A DNA stretch of 36,214 nt from the IMG/VR virus record IMGVR_UViG_3300021426_000046; one strand, 5' to 3'. This document shows, in pieces, positions 24,346-32,492 of the stretch; position 1 is the first letter of the stretch, and each line of letters starts with the position of its first letter. The position numbers and the translations under genes were made by a program. The DNA comes from a virus. Below the pieces are notes generated by a model. The model had not been told where the DNA came from, made no database searches, and was given only the letters and a program-made list of their open reading frames with translations.

Positions 24346-24376
24346 AAAATCTATACTATAGATAGGAGTGATTGTA

Positions 24377-24808
24377 ATGTTTGCAATAAGACTCAAAGAG
24401 TTACGGACTAAAAAGAACAGCCTTACCCAGGCTAAACTTGCAGAAATAATGAATGTATCTCAACAGGCTGTTGGCTTATGGGAACGCGGTAAAAATATGC
24501 CTTCTCATGAATTAGTAGCTAAACTGGCCGCCTACTTCAACGTCACCACCGACTATCTCCTTGGCCTGTCCGACCAGCCACATGCTCCTCAGCAAGAGCC
24601 ACCTAAAACCAGCAATTCCTCCCCCCATCAGCAGCAGCCACTCCAGCCCGATACCCTCACCCCCGAAGAAGCTTCTCTCGTCCAAGCCTACCGCAACGCC
24701 AACGACCGCGACAAATCCATCATTGACACCATCCTCAAACCGGAAGTGCGTGCTCAGAGCGAAACCGTGGAAGAAACGCCCCTGAGCACTGCCGAACGTA
24801 TAGGATAA
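24377..24808 (+). CDS. CI-like XRE-family repressor (143 aa) without a peptidase domain
   Basis: LTQAKLAEIMNVSQQAVGLWERGKNMPS is an HTH ending in DYLLGLSD. It is followed by a Pro/Gln-rich linker and a 45-aa tail. RBS AGGAG plus 8 nt, then ATG at 24377. Confidence 0.85.
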   Translation: MFAIRLKELRTKKNSLTQAKLAEIMNVSQQAVGLWERGKNMPSHELVAKLAAYFNVTTDYLLGLSDQPHAPQQEPPKTSNSSPHQQQPLQPDTLTPEEASLVQAYRNANDRDKSIIDTILKPEVRAQSETVEETPLSTAERIG

Positions 24809-25583: not shown

Positions 25584-25673
25584 CTCCCAAATCGTTCACT
25601 TACTCGGAATAGACAGGGAATCCAAAGCTTAATGCGTTCATAATATTGTTTAATGCATGATAGGAGGGTTTTT

Positions 25674-26255
25674 ATGTTTAACCTTGATAACAAGAGTAAA
25701 CTCATTCTCTGTTTTTCTCTTTTATTCGCCTTTGGTAGTGTTGCTTACTTATTTGGATATTACCATGGTGCAACAAACAGTATCCCTAAAAAGGCCTCAC
25801 AACTTGCAGAAAACGACATTCCCCCTCAAAAAGACACTCGTCTCGGCATAAGTGCCGATTTATTCATTCCCAACTTCAACGCTTTTTCCGACAGACTGCA
25901 TATATCGTCTTACCAAAATGTACAAAATGACTTCATCGAGTTTGGCAACAACAGCCAATCCATCATCATTATTGGCAAGGGAAATCCCAAAAATCTCGAC
26001 AGTATAGGTGTGATATTTCCCAAATATGACACCCGTGCACGCATAGACGGATTGACCGCAATTTATGCTACTATCTCCGCAGTAAGCCCGTCAACAACAG
26101 ATGCTGGGCGGGGGTATATTGGTGAACAGTTAGGGCTAGATGATGATATAGACAACAAAAGTGGCATGAAAATATCCGAATATAATGGCAAGCGATACGC
26201 TGTGACGTATGAACAAGGGAAAGTTACATTTATGTCAATGACGCAGCCTGAATAA
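25674..26255 (+). CDS. Membrane-anchored or secreted protein (193 aa), candidate superinfection-exclusion moron
   Basis: RBS TAGGAGGG plus 5 nt, then ATG at 25674. N-terminal hydrophobic helix KLILCFSLLFAFGSVAYLFGYY followed by a soluble domain. AT-rich. Confidence 0.65.
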   Translation: MFNLDNKSKLILCFSLLFAFGSVAYLFGYYHGATNSIPKKASQLAENDIPPQKDTRLGISADLFIPNFNAFSDRLHISSYQNVQNDFIEFGNNSQSIIIIGKGNPKNLDSIGVIFPKYDTRARIDGLTAIYATISAVSPSTTDAGRGYIGEQLGLDDDIDNKSGMKISEYNGKRYAVTYEQGKVTFMSMTQPE

Positions 26256-26282: not shown

Positions 26283-26538
26283 CTTCCCTTGGCCTGTCCG
26301 ACCAGCCACAGGGCCACCAGGCAGACTCCCCTGCTGCCGCCCGCAGCCACAAATCCAGTCCGATACCCTCACCCCTGAAGAAGCTGCCCTCGTCCAAGCC
26401 TACCGCAACGCCAACGACCGCGGCAAATCCATCGTTGATACCATCCTCAAACCGGAAGTGCGTGCTCAGAGCGAAGCCGTGGAAGAAACGCCGATGAGCA
26501 CCGCCACCTCCCACTCTATTCAAGAATCCGCCTGCTGA
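26283..26538 (+). pseudogene. Remnant 3 of a repressor gene (linker plus C-terminal tail of a different allele; internally frameshifted)
   Basis: It starts exactly at the LGLSDQP boundary (cttggcctgtccgaccagcca). The tail reads DTLTPEEAALVQAYRNANDRGKSIVDTILKPEVRAQSEAVEETPMSTA... up to the TGA at 26536-38. The proximal and distal parts are in different frames. Confidence 0.75.
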
Positions 26539-26552
26539 CCAATAACTCCATA

Positions 26553-26854: not shown

Positions 26855-26949
26855 TAAGCAAACCGAAAAGAAAAGTCATACCGCCTGCCAGCAGCCACCA
26901 ACCCCCCCGATTCCCTTAATGCCCCTAATCATGGACCGCAAGAAGCCAT

Positions 26950-26984
26950 AAAAAAGTAAGCCGCTCCAAACAGGAACGGCTTAT
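26950..26984 (-). terminator. Terminator of the orf216 / HTH-M78 cassette
   Basis: On the minus strand: TAAGCCG-ttcctgtttggag-CGGCTTA followed by CTTTTTTAT. It lies 3 nt after the stop at 26987. Confidence 0.65.
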
Positions 26985-26986
26985 TT

Positions 26987-28108
26987 TCATTTATTCATAA
27001 GTTTAATGATTGAATCTTCTTCGCTAAAATATCCCCTAGGAAGATTGGCTGCTTTTTCAATCAATTCTGCTGGTAAGGATATATTATCCACTAAATCTTG
27101 TTTCGTGGATAACCCCTTATCCACGAATAATTCTATTGATTGCTTATATAAACGAGGCTTTTCAGGAGTTATCTCCTTATCTCCTGGCTCTATCTTCCTC
27201 CAATGCTTTCTTGAAATTTGTTTTTGCATATACTCATACTTATCTTCAGTGATGATTTCGAACTTTCTAGCCCGTATAATCATGGCTGATATAGATGTTT
27301 TCCATTTGGGTTTGAGATATAAAAGTGCATCTAAAGAAGATGAAAAATCTGATAAAAATTCCTTTTGTGGAAGAAGTAAAGCCCCAGCAAATTCCTTTGC
27401 CTCTTCCTCCATCGTTTTCAGCTCTTCTTCTGCCATTTCTTCATCATGGAAATACAAATGACAAATCTCATGCGCAATGCTCATTCTCAACCTTACAGCT
27501 GAATTATCTTTGTTTACAAAAATATATGGTCTTCCATTCTCCCAAAAGGAAAAGCCATCCACTTTCTGTGTATCCATAGACATCACTACTATAATGATAC
27601 CATGTTTTTCAGCTGACAATATTAAATTATTTATTGGTCCTGGTGGCAACTTCCACGCGCGTCTTATAAGTTTTGCCCATAACTCAGGATCTCTTCTTTT
27701 TTCGATACTCATGGATGTTTTTATATCTGTAAAACTTTTATCTACAGGTGGAAAATTTATTTTATCATGAAAATATCCAGTAATATTAGCTACTATCATA
27801 TCTGCGATTTTCAGAGTTTTTTCTCGCTCATGCTTTGTAGCTGTACTGAATTTTCGAAAGAACACTTTACTACGATCTATATAATCCAAATTCTGAGATT
27901 GATAAAAGCTTAGGGGAAATCCATAAATATTTTTTAGTTGAAAAAATTTTTCAGAGTTTACTGCGCAACCACCACGCTCAAAAAGTGATAACGCCTGCGA
28001 TGTAACCCCTATTTTTTCTGCAACACTTTTTATCGTTAATCCTGATGCTATACGTGCATCACGAAGTCGTTGCGGAATATAATTTAATCTATTTACCGCC
28101 ATTTTCAT
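26987..28108 (-). CDS. Fused XRE-HTH / ImmA-IrrE (peptidase M78, COG2856) zinc metalloprotease with a C-terminal extension (~373 aa)
   Basis: N-terminus LRDARIASGLTIKSVAEKIGVTSQALSLFERG is an XRE HTH. The centre SIAHEICHLYFH carries an HExxH site in M78-like context (..AKEFAGALLLP). Start is ATG 28108 or 28102. It overlaps the upstream gene by ~20 nt. Confidence 0.8.
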   Translation of the reverse strand: MKMAVNRLNYIPQRLRDARIASGLTIKSVAEKIGVTSQALSLFERGGCAVNSEKFFQLKNIYGFPLSFYQSQNLDYIDRSKVFFRKFSTATKHEREKTLKIADMIVANITGYFHDKINFPPVDKSFTDIKTSMSIEKRRDPELWAKLIRRAWKLPPGPINNLILSAEKHGIIIVVMSMDTQKVDGFSFWENGRPYIFVNKDNSAVRLRMSIAHEICHLYFHDEEMAEEELKTMEEEAKEFAGALLLPQKEFLSDFSSSLDALLYLKPKWKTSISAMIIRARKFEIITEDKYEYMQKQISRKHWRKIEPGDKEITPEKPRLYKQSIELFVDKGLSTKQDLVDNISLPAELIEKAANLPRGYFSEEDSIIKLMNK

Positions 28109-28739
28109 CACGTTTCTTTACCATATTCAAAAATTCTTCATTTAATTCAACTAGAACTTCTTCTTCATCATTATCTGAAATTACTGAATATGCACCTCTA
28201 TCCAGCGGTTCACAGTACCACCAATTAGAAAGTCCTAACACCCCTATATTACCAAATTGAAAAGAGTTTTTCCCTCTATCTCCATACGTTGCTGTGAATG
28301 TACTGATTTTATTTGGTTCCCATTTCATTGGTTCAAATAAGTTTATCTCTATATTTCCTATTGTTGGGCGATATAATGCTTTATGAGGAATTTCCTCTGG
28401 CCATTCCACTCTGGCTATATAGAGCGAACAATTATCTTTTTCTAATCTTACATGTCGACAATTTTTGGCTTTATTACATTCTTCTGTATATAAAAACTCC
28501 AAATAACCTTTTTGACAATATTTTTTTGTGAAACTCGCAATAGCTGCTCTAAGAATATGTGGACGTACATCTTTTTGTCCAATAATAGTATCCAATAAAA
28601 AGTTTTCCATCACTTGTGATGTGTATAGTTGTTCTACTGCTTCGTAAGCACTATCAATAGCCGCCCGCAAGCAATGAATATCCTGTGACTGAAATAATTT
28701 CTTAAACTGCCTCTTGGATTCAATTTCGAACTCTAGCAT
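28089..28739 (-). CDS. Unknown 216-aa protein (orf216), first gene of the cassette
   Basis: GTGAGG plus 7 nt, then ATG at 28739. No motif I recognise and no transmembrane segment. Helical N-half, Trp/Tyr-rich C-half (..KWEPNKISTFTATYGDRGKNSFQFGNIGVLGLSNWWYCEPLDRG..) and an acidic tail. GC was 30% in one line I counted. Confidence 0.7.
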   Translation of the reverse strand: MLEFEIESKRQFKKLFQSQDIHCLRAAIDSAYEAVEQLYTSQVMENFLLDTIIGQKDVRPHILRAAIASFTKKYCQKGYLEFLYTEECNKAKNCRHVRLEKDNCSLYIARVEWPEEIPHKALYRPTIGNIEINLFEPMKWEPNKISTFTATYGDRGKNSFQFGNIGVLGLSNWWYCEPLDRGAYSVISDNDEEEVLVELNEEFLNMVKKRDENGGK

Positions 28740-28751
28740 AATCACGCCTCA

Positions 28752-28773
28752 CTTTCAAAAACACCTTTGAAAG
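28752..28773. promoter_or_regulatory. Perfect palindrome CTTTCAAA-N6-TTTGAAAG between the -10 and the RBS of orf216 (candidate operator)
   Basis: Read directly: 8-bp arms at 28752-59 and 28766-73. Confidence 0.6.
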
Positions 28774-28774
28774 T

Positions 28775-28803
28775 AATATAGCACTTTTTTGTAAAAAAAT
28801 CAA
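28775..28803 (-). promoter_or_regulatory. Promoter of the orf216 / HTH-M78 operon
   Basis: On the minus strand: TTGATT (28798-803), a 17-nt spacer, then TATATT (28775-80). Confidence 0.6.
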
Positions 28804-28945
28804 GTAATATGATAGAAAACCGCACAAAAGTTGTGAACTCAGCCGAACTAGCCCCCCAACACACATATCCGCGTGCGTTGGGGAATTTTTTATTTGCTAC
28901 AATGGGGATAGAACATCTGACAGTCTCCGAAAGGAGGCTGGCTCT

Positions 28946-30646
28946 ATGCCAAGAGCAAAGAAAGCGGCGATATACTGCCGTGTATCTACCATTCATCAGG
29001 TAGACAAAGACTCCCTGCCGATGCAGCGGAGCGATATGATTAACTACGCGAAGTATGCCCTCAATATTGAAGACTACGAGGTTTTCGAAGATGCGGGATA
29101 CTCAGGGAAGAATACTGACCGACCAGCATATCAGGAAATGATGGAACGCATCAAGGAAGGCGAATTCACTCATGTGCTGGTTTGGAAAATTGACCGTGTC
29201 AGCCGTAATTTGCTGGACTTTGCCTCTATGTATGCCGAATGCAAGAATTTGGGCGTAACCTTTGTGTCCAAGAACGAGCAATTCGATACTTCCACGGCCA
29301 TGGGCGAAGCCATGCTAAAGATTGTCCTGGTATTTGCCGAGTTGGAACGCAATATGACCAGTGAGCGCGTCATGTCCACGATGAACGCTCGGGCCACTGA
29401 AGGGAAATGGAATGGCGGCCGTGTACCTTTTGGATACAGCTATGACAAGGAGACGGATTCGTTCTCCATCCGTGAAGATGAGGCCAAGGTAGTCCATGAA
29501 ATGAAAAACATCTACCTGCGTCTTCATTCCATCACGGGCACGGCCCATGAGCTCAATGCCATTGGCCGCCGCACACGCCGTGGCTATGGCTGGACGCCTC
29601 AGACCGTAGCAATTATTCTACGCAGTCCTTTTTATCGTGGTACATACCGCTACAATTATAGAAATGAAACCAAAGGTACTTTTACCTTCAAAGACCAAAA
29701 AGACTGGGTCATGTGCAGCAAACATCATGAAGCTCTATTTACTCAGGAAGAATATGATAACATCGACTATTGGCTGACCAAGAACCGCCGCTTGCAGGGA
29801 AAAGCCACTCACTCCCAGCGAAAAAATGTTCACATCTTCGCCGGGCTGATAAAATGTGGCAACTGCGGGGACAACTACTTCGCTTCTCTCAGCCGGACGC
29901 TGGCTTCCGGATACCGGCCTTCGATGTACCAATGCAGCGGCCGACGGCAGAAGGCACTTTGCGATAATAAGTATGTCACCGATATAACCATTGGCAACTT
30001 TGTGTTCAACTACATCAGCAACATGATCCGACTGAAAAAGGCGTTTTCACCACGCTGGCAGATGCGTCGAATCTGCAGCACCTTACTGCGCGGTGACACC
30101 TTCCGCGAAATAAAAGCCATCTCCCCTGCCACACTCGCCAGCATCCGTACCACACTGATAGATAACCTTACTTGTACCACTGAATACCAGCCGATAAAAA
30201 ATAGACATGGCCCGGAAGCAGCTAAACGCAAAGATGAAAACCTGCAGGCAGAGTTGGATAAGAACACCCGCGCCCTTGACCGGTTGAAGCATCTATTCCT
30301 GTATGCGGATGATGCCATGGGACAGGCCGAATTCCTGCAGCAAAAGAAAGCCCTGGAAGATAATATTACGCGCATCAAGGGAGAGCTCGATGCCATCCGC
30401 AAGAGCTCCATCTTTGCCACCAATTTGTCCGAGGAGATATTTGTACAAAAAGCTGCCCAATTTTTCATGAATACTGCATTGCAGAAAGGACGCATTGATT
30501 TTGAACAGCTCGCCACTCAAACGGAGGCTACCATACTGAAAGATTTCGTTAATGCCATAGTGTCTCGTATCAGTGTACGCAACGGCAAGATTATCGAGCT
30601 TGAATTTACCAATGGCCAAATACATAGATTTGAATACTCTCTATGA
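28946..30646 (+). CDS. int: Large serine recombinase (integrase)
   Basis: AAIYCRVSTIHQ catalytic-Ser motif, a resolvase domain (..VWKIDRVSRN..), a recombinase domain, a Cys cluster (CGNCG...C..) and a C-terminal coiled coil. 566 aa. RBS AAAGGAGG. Confidence 0.9.
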   Translation: MPRAKKAAIYCRVSTIHQVDKDSLPMQRSDMINYAKYALNIEDYEVFEDAGYSGKNTDRPAYQEMMERIKEGEFTHVLVWKIDRVSRNLLDFASMYAECKNLGVTFVSKNEQFDTSTAMGEAMLKIVLVFAELERNMTSERVMSTMNARATEGKWNGGRVPFGYSYDKETDSFSIREDEAKVVHEMKNIYLRLHSITGTAHELNAIGRRTRRGYGWTPQTVAIILRSPFYRGTYRYNYRNETKGTFTFKDQKDWVMCSKHHEALFTQEEYDNIDYWLTKNRRLQGKATHSQRKNVHIFAGLIKCGNCGDNYFASLSRTLASGYRPSMYQCSGRRQKALCDNKYVTDITIGNFVFNYISNMIRLKKAFSPRWQMRRICSTLLRGDTFREIKAISPATLASIRTTLIDNLTCTTEYQPIKNRHGPEAAKRKDENLQAELDKNTRALDRLKHLFLYADDAMGQAEFLQQKKALEDNITRIKGELDAIRKSSIFATNLSEEIFVQKAAQFFMNTALQKGRIDFEQLATQTEATILKDFVNAIVSRISVRNGKIIELEFTNGQIHRFEYSL

Positions 30647-30654
30647 ACGACAAA

Positions 30655-30694
30655 AGCACCGGCAGTCCTTGACCGTCGGTGCTTTCTGGTATTT
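30655..30694 (+). terminator. Probable terminator after int
   Basis: agcaccggc ... gtcggtgct stem of ~9 bp, followed by the T-rich ttctggtattt. Confidence 0.45.
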
Positions 30695-30808
30695 ATTCAT
30701 CTTTTTGATGGGAAGCTTCGAGTGCTGCCAGTTCTCTATCCCGTTCATCCTTGGGTTGTTGTACTGAGAGATACATAGCGTCCCCTATGTATGGTTAGAT
30801 ATATCATA

Positions 30809-32020
30809 TCAATACAGCCCAGCCCGGTCATTAATAACAAAGACACGAATCATCTCCAGTGTCAAATCCAGCTTATCCTTGCCGCCAATTCCACCCAACA
30901 AGCCTTTATCAATCATCTTCTGAATTGTGGGCCGTGCCCATTCCGGCACCTCGTTTACATTATTATATCGCATCTCATCATCCTCCAACAACATTTTATT
31001 CGTTAACGCAAAGTCATCATAGTAATCTTGAGCATATTTTTCCCTAATGGATTGTACCGCCTCGCTCTGATCAGCTGGTCGTTCAAAATCAAACAGAACA
31101 GTATTGCTTGCATCTTGAACGGAACCAGCATTAGCCAATTTCTCCAGAAGATATTGATTCATCTGCAATTCCTGCCATAAGAACTCTAACTGTATATCCA
31201 AATCGCCAACGGACTTCCCTTTAGCTCTGGCATATTCCAGCAACCCTGCCTTGCGGTTATAATATGTCCACTGTGCCAGACCATAGCCCGCTCGATCATA
31301 CACAAAGTTTTGATATTCTCCGCTATCCACAGCGCGAGTATACTCATCATCCGACATTCCCAGCTTACACTCGTAGTAGTTCTCCAGATTGGTGGAGCTA
31401 AGTCCACTCTCCGCATAGAGATTTCCCATAAGCCCTGCTGCAGCATAGTCATTTAGCCCTTTTCCCTTCAGAAAGCGCCATATCTTTTCCTCAGGCAACA
31501 TTTTAGGTGCGCTTTCCTCCTGTTCTACAGCACCATATCTGTACCAGTTGGCCTTACCAGTTATTGTTCCATCATCAAGCAATGTTTGCAAATTTGCACC
31601 TGGACAGTCTGTGGCCATAAGCTCTCCATGTCCCAGGACATGCTCTCTATCTATAGGAAAACCATAGTCGGCACTCAAATTGGCAATAAGCATCGCGCAT
31701 TTCTCAATCTGCTCTGTCGTTGGCTTAGCCTGTGAAAAATCTCCAGACAAATGAATCCCTATCGTATGGTTGTTTTCCCCACATGCATGAGACCCCACAG
31801 CCCATTCCGGCCTGCCTCGTTCTATCGTGCCATCTTTCCGGATGACAAAGTGATAGCCTATACCGGCCCAGCCATTATTTAGGTGCCAGCCATGAATCTG
31901 TTCCGCGCTGGCATCAATGTCATTTCCACCCGTATGATGAAGGACAACCATATCTGTAGAATCACGCTTGTACAGACTCCCAAAAGACAAGTTTGTTTCT
32001 TTTATATTGGCACGTTCCAT
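30809..32020 (-). CDS. Endolysin: N-acetylmuramoyl-L-alanine amidase (Amidase_2/PGRP) plus a second lysozyme-like domain and a short C-terminal putative wall-binding segment
   Basis: VVLHHTGG....IH.WH...GW.GIGYHFVI..DG.I..GR....GSHA....N..IGI.L.G is the Amidase_2 pattern. The middle AAGLMGNLYAESGL..GYGLAQWT resembles phage tail-lysozyme-type domains. ATG at 32020 after AGGAGGGG. Confidence 0.85.
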   Translation of the reverse strand: MERANIKETNLSFGSLYKRDSTDMVVLHHTGGNDIDASAEQIHGWHLNNGWAGIGYHFVIRKDGTIERGRPEWAVGSHACGENNHTIGIHLSGDFSQAKPTTEQIEKCAMLIANLSADYGFPIDREHVLGHGELMATDCPGANLQTLLDDGTITGKANWYRYGAVEQEESAPKMLPEEKIWRFLKGKGLNDYAAAGLMGNLYAESGLSSTNLENYYECKLGMSDDEYTRAVDSGEYQNFVYDRAGYGLAQWTYYNRKAGLLEYARAKGKSVGDLDIQLEFLWQELQMNQYLLEKLANAGSVQDASNTVLFDFERPADQSEAVQSIREKYAQDYYDDFALTNKMLLEDDEMRYNNVNEVPEWARPTIQKMIDKGLLGGIGGKDKLDLTLEMIRVFVINDRAGLY

Positions 32021-32021
32021 A

Positions 32022-32492
32022 CTATCCCCTCCTTGTTTTCTTCCCATTCAAAGATGAGCTGCCTTTTTCGCCAATGGTTCGATAAGCCATTTTTACAATA
32101 TCGGGCACGGGAACACCAATCATTTCGGCATTCCGGACAATAGATATCCCTTCATTAGCTAAATAGCCATAGGTAACGGCAAGACAGACCACATTTGCGC
32201 CTAAGATGGCATCTGCCAAATGCCCAAGGGCTACAATCAGAAGGATTGTCACTTTCTTTGCCAAACCTTTAGCACCTTTCTCGTAGTCCACTGCCTCATT
32301 TGGGCTGACTGCTGCCGCTAAAACACCGGTCAAATAGTCTATCGCCATCGCAATAAGCAGGGCATTAAGCGCCTGCGTCCATTCGCCATATAAAACTGTA
32401 ACCAAAGCACCAAACATCCCTGTTGTTCCTCCTACTGCAGCCTCTGTCCGATTTGGAACAAGTGACTTTATCAATTCTGTTACCTCATTCAA
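32022..32492 (-). CDS. Holin (phage_holin_4_1 / toxin-secretion holin family)
   Basis: LIAMAIDYLTGVLAA..KGLAKKV...ANEGISIVRNAEMIGVPVP is characteristic. Multiple transmembrane helices. TTG start after AGGAGG plus 8 nt. It lies immediately upstream of the endolysin. Confidence 0.85.
   Translation of the reverse strand: MNEVTELIKSLVPNRTEAAVGGTTGMFGALVTVLYGEWTQALNALLIAMAIDYLTGVLAAAVSPNEAVDYEKGAKGLAKKVTILLIVALGHLADAILGANVVCLAVTYGYLANEGISIVRNAEMIGVPVPDIVKMAYRTIGEKGSSSLNGKKTRRG

Follow-up and report, generated by a model that had tools for sequence, protein, structure and literature searches.

The window examined here, the whole 36,214-nucleotide stretch of IMG/VR virus record IMGVR_UViG_3300021426_000046, carries on its minus strand a two-gene cassette, rmrT (orf216) and rmrA, in which the genes are adjacent and co-oriented, with a single promoter upstream and a single terminator downstream. 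All features that an earlier note had listed for this cassette were located on that strand, and they are given here with their coordinates.

28775..28803, minus strand: cassette promoter found by consensus scan, with -35 TTGATT (28803-28798), a 17-nt spacer containing a T-run, and TG-extended -10 TATATT (28780-28775)
28751..28774, minus strand: putative RmrA operator palindrome, ACTTTCAAA-N6-TTTGAAAGT, with the core CTTTCA-N10-TGAAAG
28747..28750, minus strand: ribosome-binding site GAGG, 7 nt upstream of the rmrT ATG, read from the sequence
28089..28739, minus strand: rmrT (orf216), 216 aa, pI 5.4, predicted soluble; predicted toxin; PADLOC RmrT
26987..28111, minus strand: rmrA, 371-374 aa, pI 9.1; predicted antitoxin and autorepressor; PADLOC RmrA
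26957..26983, minus strand: intrinsic terminator with an 11-bp stem and a 5-nt loop, then CTTTTTTAT

The low GC content reported for the cassette is borne out (34.2% against 47.6% in the remainder of the window), as is its position between int and repressor, since it is flanked by a large serine recombinase (28946-30646) and an HTH-only XRE repressor (24368-24808). The overlap between the two reading frames, first put at about 20 nt, measures 14–23 nt and varies with the rmrA start chosen (GTG 28111, ATG 28108, or ATG 28102); gene callers select the 371-aa ATG form in related contigs. The hairpin and T-run at 26983..26957 had been correctly read as a terminator, and because a T-rich run also flanks the hairpin on the plus strand, this element may work bidirectionally. 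A PADLOC scan of seven neighbouring proteins matched no CBASS genes and, for other defence genes, gave generic HTH matches only, while neither Rfam families nor tRNAs were detected anywhere in the window. When the first 24 kb of the window were compared with phages by megablast, nothing matched, and so, at the level of nucleotide sequence, the phage does not correspond to any already described.

The promoter TTGATT-17-TATATT named in the earlier note is present at 28803..28775, with a TG before the -10. Taken alone, this consensus match is weak because 12 promoter-like sites were seen in the region against 8.3 +/- 3.0 expected. Nevertheless, of 8 related loci, 7 share the -35 and the extended -10 as well as the T-run, and the promoter is conserved together with the genes in L001, L002-L006, L009, L010, L011, and L016. 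The GAGG ribosome-binding site is likewise conserved in alignments A3 and A7. Between the -10 and this site, directly after the -10 and across the transcription start region, lies the palindrome. Its presence, N6 spacing, and position at the expected start stand as first described, but the arms are 9+9 and 100% complementary, not 8+8. A single copy of the operator core CTTTCA-N10-TGAAAG is present in the window, where 0.11 would be expected, and the core is retained beside the -10 in 7 of the 8 related loci; in L009, it carries a symmetric, two-sided C..G to G..C change. Judging from these alignments, promoter and operator core move together with the rmrT-rmrA genes, and we infer that the HTH domain of RmrA binds the palindrome at 28751-28774.

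RosmerTA is a pair formed by the toxin RmrT and the Zn-peptidase antitoxin RmrA (Millman 2022; Ernits 2023), for which PADLOC-DB and DefenseFinder both have models. When the cassette was checked with PADLOC, orf216 was assigned to RmrT and the 374-aa protein to RmrA, although the names of these models stem from family expansion and not from family-by-family tests. The cassette had been put forward as a candidate for an undescribed system, which it is not, because both proteins match existing RosmerTA models over their full length. The match of orf216 to the RmrT model PDLC03933 (E 8e-30) covers residues 24-215 of 216 and profile positions 22-210 of 212, with weaker matches to PDLC03940 and PDLC03938. 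That of RmrA to PDLC03947 (E 3.8e-111) covers residues 8-372 and profile positions 8-378 of 383, and 13 more RmrA models are matched as well. The suggestion in the earlier note that orf216 is an effector or toxin held in check by its HTH-protease partner agrees with the published RosmerTA model.

The domain order predicted for RmrA is an XRE HTH, a helical linker, an M78/ImmA-IrrE Zn-protease, and a helical C-terminal region. In 374-aa numbering, Pfam places HTH_3 at 16-67 and Peptidase_M78 at 167-280 (E 5e-20), and the zinc site HEICH at 214-218 is accompanied by an E..A..FA..L.P motif, so that HExxH...E is intact. The XRE HTH, the HEICH site, and the M78 context were thus rightly recognised at the outset, whereas the C-terminal extension, thought to be about 130 aa, amounts to about 94 aa beyond the Pfam domain. 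Across 40 homologues, H211, E212, and H215 (371-aa numbering) are invariant and E232 is nearly so. In the AF2 model (pLDDT 88, pTM 0.88), Foldseek relates the protease domain to IrrE/PprI and CapP, and the HTH to ImmR, CapH, and DdrO. RmrA also matches PHROG 2439 and, over its full length, the NCBIfam spr1629 antitoxin model NF052239 (E 1e-56), scoring 192.4 bits against an equivalog cut-off of 335. Its PADLOC matches to capP (E 3e-18) and capH (E 7e-4) involve single domains only.

Beyond PADLOC, orf216 has no placeable motif, as had been claimed: searches of Pfam, NCBIfam, and PHROGs with this protein and 32 family members returned no meaningful family. For orf216 itself, a sequence search against PDB returned nothing, and neither GenBank phages nor PLSDB plasmids yielded a tblastn match. 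All 32 of the 32 aligned family members match the PDLC03933 model. A word-indexed homologue search gave only 3–5 RmrT relatives, and an exhaustive profile search of 1.84 billion representative proteins was required to recover the family, which comprises 52 clusters at 50% identity. The AF2 model of orf216 (pLDDT 82) has a helical bundle plus a beta-sheet, and no Foldseek match in PDB or BFVD reached E <= 0.001. Weak matches included PD-(D/E)xK-type nucleases (splicing endonuclease, Hjc, BglII, and CinB) at probabilities <=0.25 and TM-scores <=0.3. We do not assign orf216 to these nucleases; its predicted topology, a helical bundle followed by six strands without an intervening helix, misfits the fold. 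With a maximum Kyte-Doolittle hydropathy of 0.47 and no transmembrane segment, the prediction for RmrT is a soluble, cytoplasmic protein with a mass of about 25 kDa. Its conserved polar set consists of Y32, R64, N89, N93, H96, R124, and W173. Within an otherwise disordered tail, the C-terminal motif E-E-x-L-V-x-L (residues 193-199) is also conserved and is a candidate RmrA contact or cleavage site.

Homologues of orf216 stand beside HTH-M78 genes in other genomes, a pairing that the earlier note had named as informative. In all 15 of the other loci examined, a relative of orf216 is found directly 5' of an HTH-M78 gene (~370-390 aa). The count took in loci L001-L012 and L015-L018, about nine distinct lineages with both cultured and metagenomic phages among them; only the start of the HTH-M78 gene is present in the short contigs L003, L009, and L012. 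The paired genes overlap or abut, and their flanking genes vary between loci. A close-alignment scan of viral contigs for related loci found nothing. Identities of RmrA/RmrT to the proteins of the window fall from 70/60 through 51/43 and 45/34 to 31/28%, and by this measure the two proteins diverge in parallel. Among cultured-phage relatives, the annotations read 'hypothetical protein' (Lacticaseibacillus R24.2) or 'cI-like repressor' (phiCD418).

The boundaries of homology coincide closely with those of the cassette. In L001 (69% nucleotide identity), homology runs from ~28805, at the -35, to near the rmrA stop between unrelated flanks, and homology to L002, L004, and L005 stops at 26982. The pair lies between a late regulator and terminase in L016-L018 and phiCD418, just upstream of the terminase genes in phiCT9441A, after the lysin in L011, beside a HicB-like gene in L001, and beside helicase and nuclease genes in L007. 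Phage cargo positions recur for this pair, and the cassette appears, from its sequence, to have been acquired horizontally as a single unit from promoter through terminator.

These positions bear on an alternative already raised in the earlier note, in which the HTH-M78 protein would be an ImmA-like anti-repressor that cleaves the 146-aa CI-like repressor and throws the lytic switch, with orf216 as an accessory. XRE repressors are cleaved by M78 proteases of the ImmA, IrrE, and CapP type, to which RmrA has structural matches, and the CI-like repressor (24368-24808) has an HTH_3 domain only, with no S24 peptidase. The location between int and repressor and the annotation of the related phiCD418 protein would also fit. 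However, the analysis lends this proposal no support. The pair comes with a separate promoter and terminator, on the strand opposite to the repressor and 2.2 kb away from it; its protease is fused to an HTH of its own and matches the RmrA model far better than capP (E 4e-111 against 3e-18); and the same pair is found away from lysogeny modules in L016-L018, phiCD418, phiCT9441A, L011, L001, and L007. Moreover, the window has no second copy of the operator core, and the HTH region of RmrA gave no BLASTP alignment with the CI-like repressor. We therefore regard induction through the CI-like repressor as very unlikely.

It is also conceivable that orf216 is not a toxin but a direct exclusion or regulatory protein, with RmrA acting only as its transcriptional repressor and the protease domain serving as a signal sensor. 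The lack of a toxin-like fold or motif in orf216 and the placement of the operator over the transcription start region are in keeping with such a scheme. Against it, tested Rosmer antitoxin genes are essential or undeletable when the toxin is present and neutralise toxin supplied in trans under another promoter, and the conserved frame overlap and parallel divergence point to a protein-protein partnership. As such, we consider a non-toxic orf216 extremely improbable.

Very probably, then, the cassette is a RosmerTA-type toxin-antitoxin or abortive-infection cargo of a temperate phage with a Selenomonas-like host, apparently acquired horizontally as one promoter-to-terminator unit. By analogy with characterised pairs, its most likely function would be to abort infection and shield the lysogen, as a toxin-antitoxin cargo that regulates itself. 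RmrT toxicity, its neutralisation by RmrA, and the trigger are likewise read from such pairs in the scheme that follows. One sigma-70 promoter would drive co-transcription of rmrT and rmrA, and the overlap of their frames suggests translational coupling. RmrA dimers would sit, through the XRE HTH, on the palindrome that separates the -10 from the ribosome-binding site and repress the operon, and RmrA would neutralise RmrT at the protein level, as in other Rosmer pairs. Upon infection by another phage or other stress, RmrA may lose its activity, be titrated away, or be induced to cleave itself or its partner via the M78 site, in the manner of ImmA, IrrE, and CapP. Freed RmrT could then stop growth or kill the cell before the invader's cycle is completed, leaving the remaining lysogens protected.

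The toxin-antitoxin architecture with autoregulation might equally serve a pure addiction module, which would stabilise the prophage through the death of cells that have lost it, or would modulate host physiology without any anti-phage role. The latter has a precedent in RipAB, a Rosmer pair with a documented physiological role apart from phage defence, in that it modulates competence (bioRxiv 10.1101/2025.09.02.673660). However, two Rosmer systems challenged with phages gave protection and the pair recurs at phage cargo positions, which makes a purely addictive role improbable, and the addiction and defence roles are in any case mutually compatible.

More would follow if the cassette departed from the known RosmerTA scheme, which we think unlikely. 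The soluble RmrT subfamily may have an undescribed toxic mechanism or target, with its C-terminal motif bound or cut by the RmrA protease, or, separately, RmrA may also cut the CI-like repressor. If true, contact at the motif would open a first route to understanding how Rosmer toxins are kept under control by their antitoxins, and cleavage of the repressor would couple defence to prophage induction. The chief value of the present analysis is the correction of an annotation, as a cassette flagged as undescribed is a standard RosmerTA pair, which PADLOC or DefenseFinder would name accordingly. In addition, it adds a Rosmer pair from a phage infecting a rumen Negativicute and shows that the horizontally transferred unit includes the promoter and the conserved operator CTTTCA-N10-TGAAAG. 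How a soluble RmrT acts and how a protease-antitoxin senses infection are questions for Rosmer systems generally and are not peculiar to this locus.

Like other RosmerTA loci, the cassette consists of two adjacent, co-oriented genes for a toxin and an XRE HTH fused to an M78/ImmA-type Zn-peptidase, with both proteins matching the models over their full length. It has the commoner gene order, the toxin being first in 58% of ImmA/Rosmer-node pairs (PMC10440598). The cassette differs in its host lineage, a Selenomonas-like Negativicute, and in an RmrT that belongs to a small subfamily. RosmerTA protects against phages, and a deletion of rmrA could not be transformed (Millman et al. 2022). These systems have also been reported among the defence systems most frequent or enriched in gut phage genomes. 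The RosmerTA of Gordonia phage Kita (RmrT-D5/RmrA-D25) is a validated toxin-antitoxin pair with narrow-spectrum anti-phage defence (Ernits et al. 2023, PMC10440598). Like the cassette, it is encoded by a phage and has an HTH-ImmA protease as its antitoxin, but its toxin, which depolarises the membrane, carries a predicted membrane region at the C-terminus (PMC10440598), whereas the RmrT described here has no hydrophobic segment.

RipAB (Spr1630/Spr1629) of S. pneumoniae also combines a toxin and an XRE-HTH/ImmA-like antitoxin in one operon. RipA, which acts on the DnaN clamp, is neutralised in trans by RipB, and ClpX is needed to keep RipA in check (bioRxiv 10.1101/2025.09.02.673660). RmrA is related to the spr1629 family but, falling below the equivalog cut-off, is not an equivalog, and the RmrT family has no NCBIfam match.

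The XRE HTH and M78 HExxH...E domain types are shared with ImmR/ImmA of ICEBs1, DdrO/IrrE(PprI) of Deinococcus, and CapH/CapP of CBASS. An ImmR/ImmA-type module has separate repressor and protease genes in an operon that includes or adjoins the recombinase gene of the element; in this cassette, HTH and protease are fused and the XRE repressor of the phage, 2.2 kb off on the opposite strand, belongs to a divergent cI/cro-like unit of its own. Nor does it have the CapH/CapP layout of two separate genes beside a CD-NTase/effector operon, there being no CBASS genes among the scanned neighbours and the capP and capH matches being single-domain and far weaker than those to RmrA. In all three known systems, the repressor and protease are separate proteins, unlike the fused RmrA with its additional C-terminal helical region, and their regulatory targets are an ICE excision operon, a DNA-repair regulon, and a CBASS operon, respectively, where the cassette has a predicted toxin gene. 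Nonetheless, analogy with these systems suggests that the cassette may operate as a stress-triggered proteolytic switch.

By its sequence matches, the cassette belongs to a known toxin-antitoxin family with anti-phage function, RosmerTA (toxin RmrT with a fused HTH/zinc-protease antitoxin, RmrA), rather than to an undescribed system, for which the earlier note had taken it as the best candidate. With the PADLOC library, both proteins are named as RosmerTA components. More specifically, orf216 (rmrT, the predicted toxin gene) matches RmrT model PDLC03933 over essentially its whole length (E 8e-30), and the product of the HTH-M78 gene (rmrA, the predicted antitoxin gene) matches RmrA model PDLC03947 at residues 8-372 (E 3.8e-111) as well as 13 other RmrA models, while its capP and capH matches are far weaker and confined to single domains. 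That orf216 carries no placeable motif was borne out, as Pfam and NCBIfam gave no match for it and the PHROGs none of use. RmrT and RmrA make up a system that is protective against phages and in which an rmrA deletion could not be transformed (Millman et al. 2022). An ImmA-protease antitoxin hub pairs with many different RmrT toxins, the toxin comes first in 58% of pairs, and for the phage-encoded pair of Gordonia phage Kita both TA and defence function have been validated (Ernits et al. 2023, PMC10440598). RosmerTA is also among the most frequent defence systems in gut phage genomes (survey preprint). The value left in the cassette lies in its uncharacterised soluble RmrT subfamily.

The cassette itself is real and has the following layout:

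28803..28775, minus strand: promoter TTGATT-17-TATATT with TG extension (promoter scan)
28751-28774: perfect 9+9 palindrome ACTTTCAAA-N6-TTTGAAAGT between the -10 and a GAGG ribosome-binding site (inverted-repeat search)
28739..28089, minus strand: rmrT (orf216); an alternative GTG at 28745 gives 218 aa
28111..26987, minus strand: rmrA (HTH-M78 gene), 374 aa when read from GTG
26983..26957, minus strand: terminator, 11-bp stem then T-run (same scan as the promoter)
28946-30646: neighbouring large serine recombinase (Resolvase, Recombinase and Zn_ribbon_recom domains)
24368-24808: neighbouring XRE repressor, 146 aa, HTH domain only

The earlier description was accurate for the promoter, the terminator, the position between int and repressor and the low GC content (34.2% in 26957-28803 vs 47.6% in the remaining window). 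The palindrome is present and perfect as described, with arms of 9+9 where 8+8 had been read, and the C-terminal extension of the HTH-M78 protein reaches about 94 aa past the Pfam M78 domain, not about 130 aa. The gene overlap, put at about 20 nt, is 14-23 nt because rmrA has three possible starts (GTG 28111, ATG 28108 for 373 aa and ATG 28102 for 371 aa). The repressor gene and a Cro-like HTH gene are divergently oriented. An inverted repeat, CCCCAACACAC-N8-GTGCGTTGGGG then AATTTTTTATTT (28854-28883, + strand), separates the cassette promoter from the integrase ribosome-binding site and is kept in compared loci L002-L006; it resembles a + strand terminator or attenuator a short way upstream of int and might insulate int against read-through transcription.

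A word-indexed search returned three close orf216 relatives only, and an exhaustive profile search of 1.84 billion representative proteins returned 52 clusters of relatives, all of about 205-224 aa. The same PADLOC RmrT model is matched by 32/32 aligned family members, none of which has a Pfam or NCBIfam match. We examined 15 other loci with an orf216 relative, representing about nine distinct lineages; the sources were eleven metagenomic contigs, one Selenomonas ruminantium MAG, three human oral phage contigs and Lacticaseibacillus phage R24.2. Whether orf216 homologues lie beside HTH-M78 genes, a question raised earlier, is answered by all 15: an HTH+M78 gene of 369-391 aa directly follows, overlapping or abutting, and in the short contigs L003, L009 and L012 it is represented by its start only. 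The two proteins diverge from those of the window in parallel (RmrA/RmrT identity 70/60, 51/43, 45/34 and 31/28%), with RmrA the more conserved in every comparison. The cassette is int-proximal in the window, L002, L003 and the MAG prophage (L006), adjoins a HicB-like gene in L001, lies in L007 between helicase and Cas4-like nuclease genes, follows a phage lysin in L011 and sits between a late-gene regulator and terminase in L016-L018.

RmrA homologues also occur with other partners, namely another RmrT family (PDLC03930) in cultured phages phiCD418 and phiCT9441A and a DUF5986 protein in a Parageobacillus prophage; such swapping of partners has been described for Rosmer. Complete pairs in cultured phages (PADLOC) were as follows:

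L013, Clostridioides phage phiCD418, 49186-51123: toxin RmrT PDLC03930
L014, Clostridium phage phiCT9441A, 13688-15649: toxin RmrT PDLC03930, partner by tblastn only
L015, Lacticaseibacillus phage R24.2, 25927-27691: toxin RmrT PDLC03933

The L013 and L015 partners match RmrA models in PADLOC (E 1e-110 to 1e-164). The genes of these three pairs are annotated as 'hypothetical protein', 'XRE family transcriptional regulator' or 'putative cI-like repressor protein', and the phiCD418 and phiCT9441A rmrA genes as 'cI-like repressor' or 'XRE regulator'; the cI-like repressor annotation is probably wrong.

Nucleotide homology between L001 and the window (69%) runs from the -35 hexamer to about the rmrA stop codon; outside the cassette the flanks are unrelated. 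Of eight loci with an RmrA 45-94% identical to that of the window, seven keep the -35 (as TTGAT or nearly so), the T-run, the -10 with its TG extension and the core operator, with consensus (C/G)TTTCA-N10-TGAAA(G/C); the L009 core carries a symmetric change (C..G to G..C). The core occurs once in the window vs 0.11 expected. Together, these conserved elements and the single core support a model in which the RmrA HTH would repress its own operon at the putative operator. The alternative in the earlier note, that the RmrA protease cleaves the CI-like repressor of the phage, is disfavoured, since HTH and protease are fused in one protein, the cassette is a separate transcription unit on the opposite strand to the repressor, the operator is unique in the window, and the same pair recurs far from lysogeny modules.

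In its identity and general logic, the cassette is very probably an autoregulated type-II-like toxin-antitoxin cargo operon that would defend the lysogen through abortive infection or superinfection defence. The analysis itself shows that the pair belongs to the family, that the pairing, promoter and operator are conserved, that the protease site is intact and that the toxin is soluble. RmrT toxicity, neutralisation by RmrA in trans and phage protection are carried over from the literature on other Rosmer members and may apply here by analogy. The toxin-partner logic proposed earlier was partly right as functional intuition. Binding at the operator, the trigger, what proteolysis does and what the toxin targets are inferred. 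The pair might act purely as a selfish addiction module or, like RipAB, in physiology, and each is compatible with a defence role.

In the lysogeny region, the 3' third of the CI-like repressor gene is present a second time in decayed and frame-shifted form (26285-26540, + strand; cf. 24560-24808), and about 24634-24793 matches 26343-26505 at 149/163 nt (91%). As a direct repeat, the two copies flank a DUF2513 gene, a 68-aa ORF and a 200-aa ORF. The same segment (50-110 nt) is found in three places in L006, and in L002 it comes right behind the rmrA terminator; it looks like a recombination joint for module swapping. The 200-aa ORF (25653-26255, + strand), between the DUF2513 gene and the cassette, has a hydrophobic N-terminal segment and matches nothing in Pfam or PADLOC; it could be a further cargo gene expressed in the lysogen, e.g., for a membrane or exclusion protein. 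The window is 94% identical to the integrated L006 prophage over 26866-30785, and the similarity stops at 30785. This breakpoint (around 3953 in L006) falls in the gap that separates the integrase stop codon from the endolysin gene (30809-32047, minus strand), and past it the MAG carries different genes. The attP site is probably at about 30650-30800, in which case the window would show the phage (or circular) form and not an integrated prophage.

The RmrA AF2 model is confident (pLDDT 88, pTM 0.88); its protease region matches IrrE/PprI and CapP, and its N-terminal domain matches the HTH domains of ImmR, CapH and DdrO. The protease is presumably active and under selection because, among 40 homologues, H211, E212 and H215 are invariant and E232 in the E..A..FA..L.P motif is nearly so (371-aa numbering). 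RmrT is acidic (pI 5.4) and lacks any hydrophobic segment (Kyte-Doolittle maximum over 19 residues 0.47). In its AF2 model (pLDDT 82, pTM 0.78) a helical bundle at the N-terminus packs against a six-stranded sheet, and the fold search proposed earlier gave no significant match in PDB or BFVD. Scattered weak matches to PD-(D/E)xK nucleases were not significant, and this reading was set aside. Conserved residues are Y32, R64, N89, N93, H96, R124, G153, G166 and W173. Residues 188-202 are the sole very low-confidence stretch of the model and contain an E-E-x-L-V-x-L motif (193-199), kept across the family, which we propose as a candidate RmrA contact or cleavage site.

The RmrA of the window is related to Spr1629, yet scores 192 bits against an equivalog cut-off of 335 bits. 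The Kita toxin is a membrane protein, whereas the RmrT of the window is not, and the only characterised soluble Rosmer toxin that we found is RipA (Spr1630), which targets the DnaN clamp and needs ClpX to be kept in check (bioRxiv 10.1101/2025.09.02.673660).
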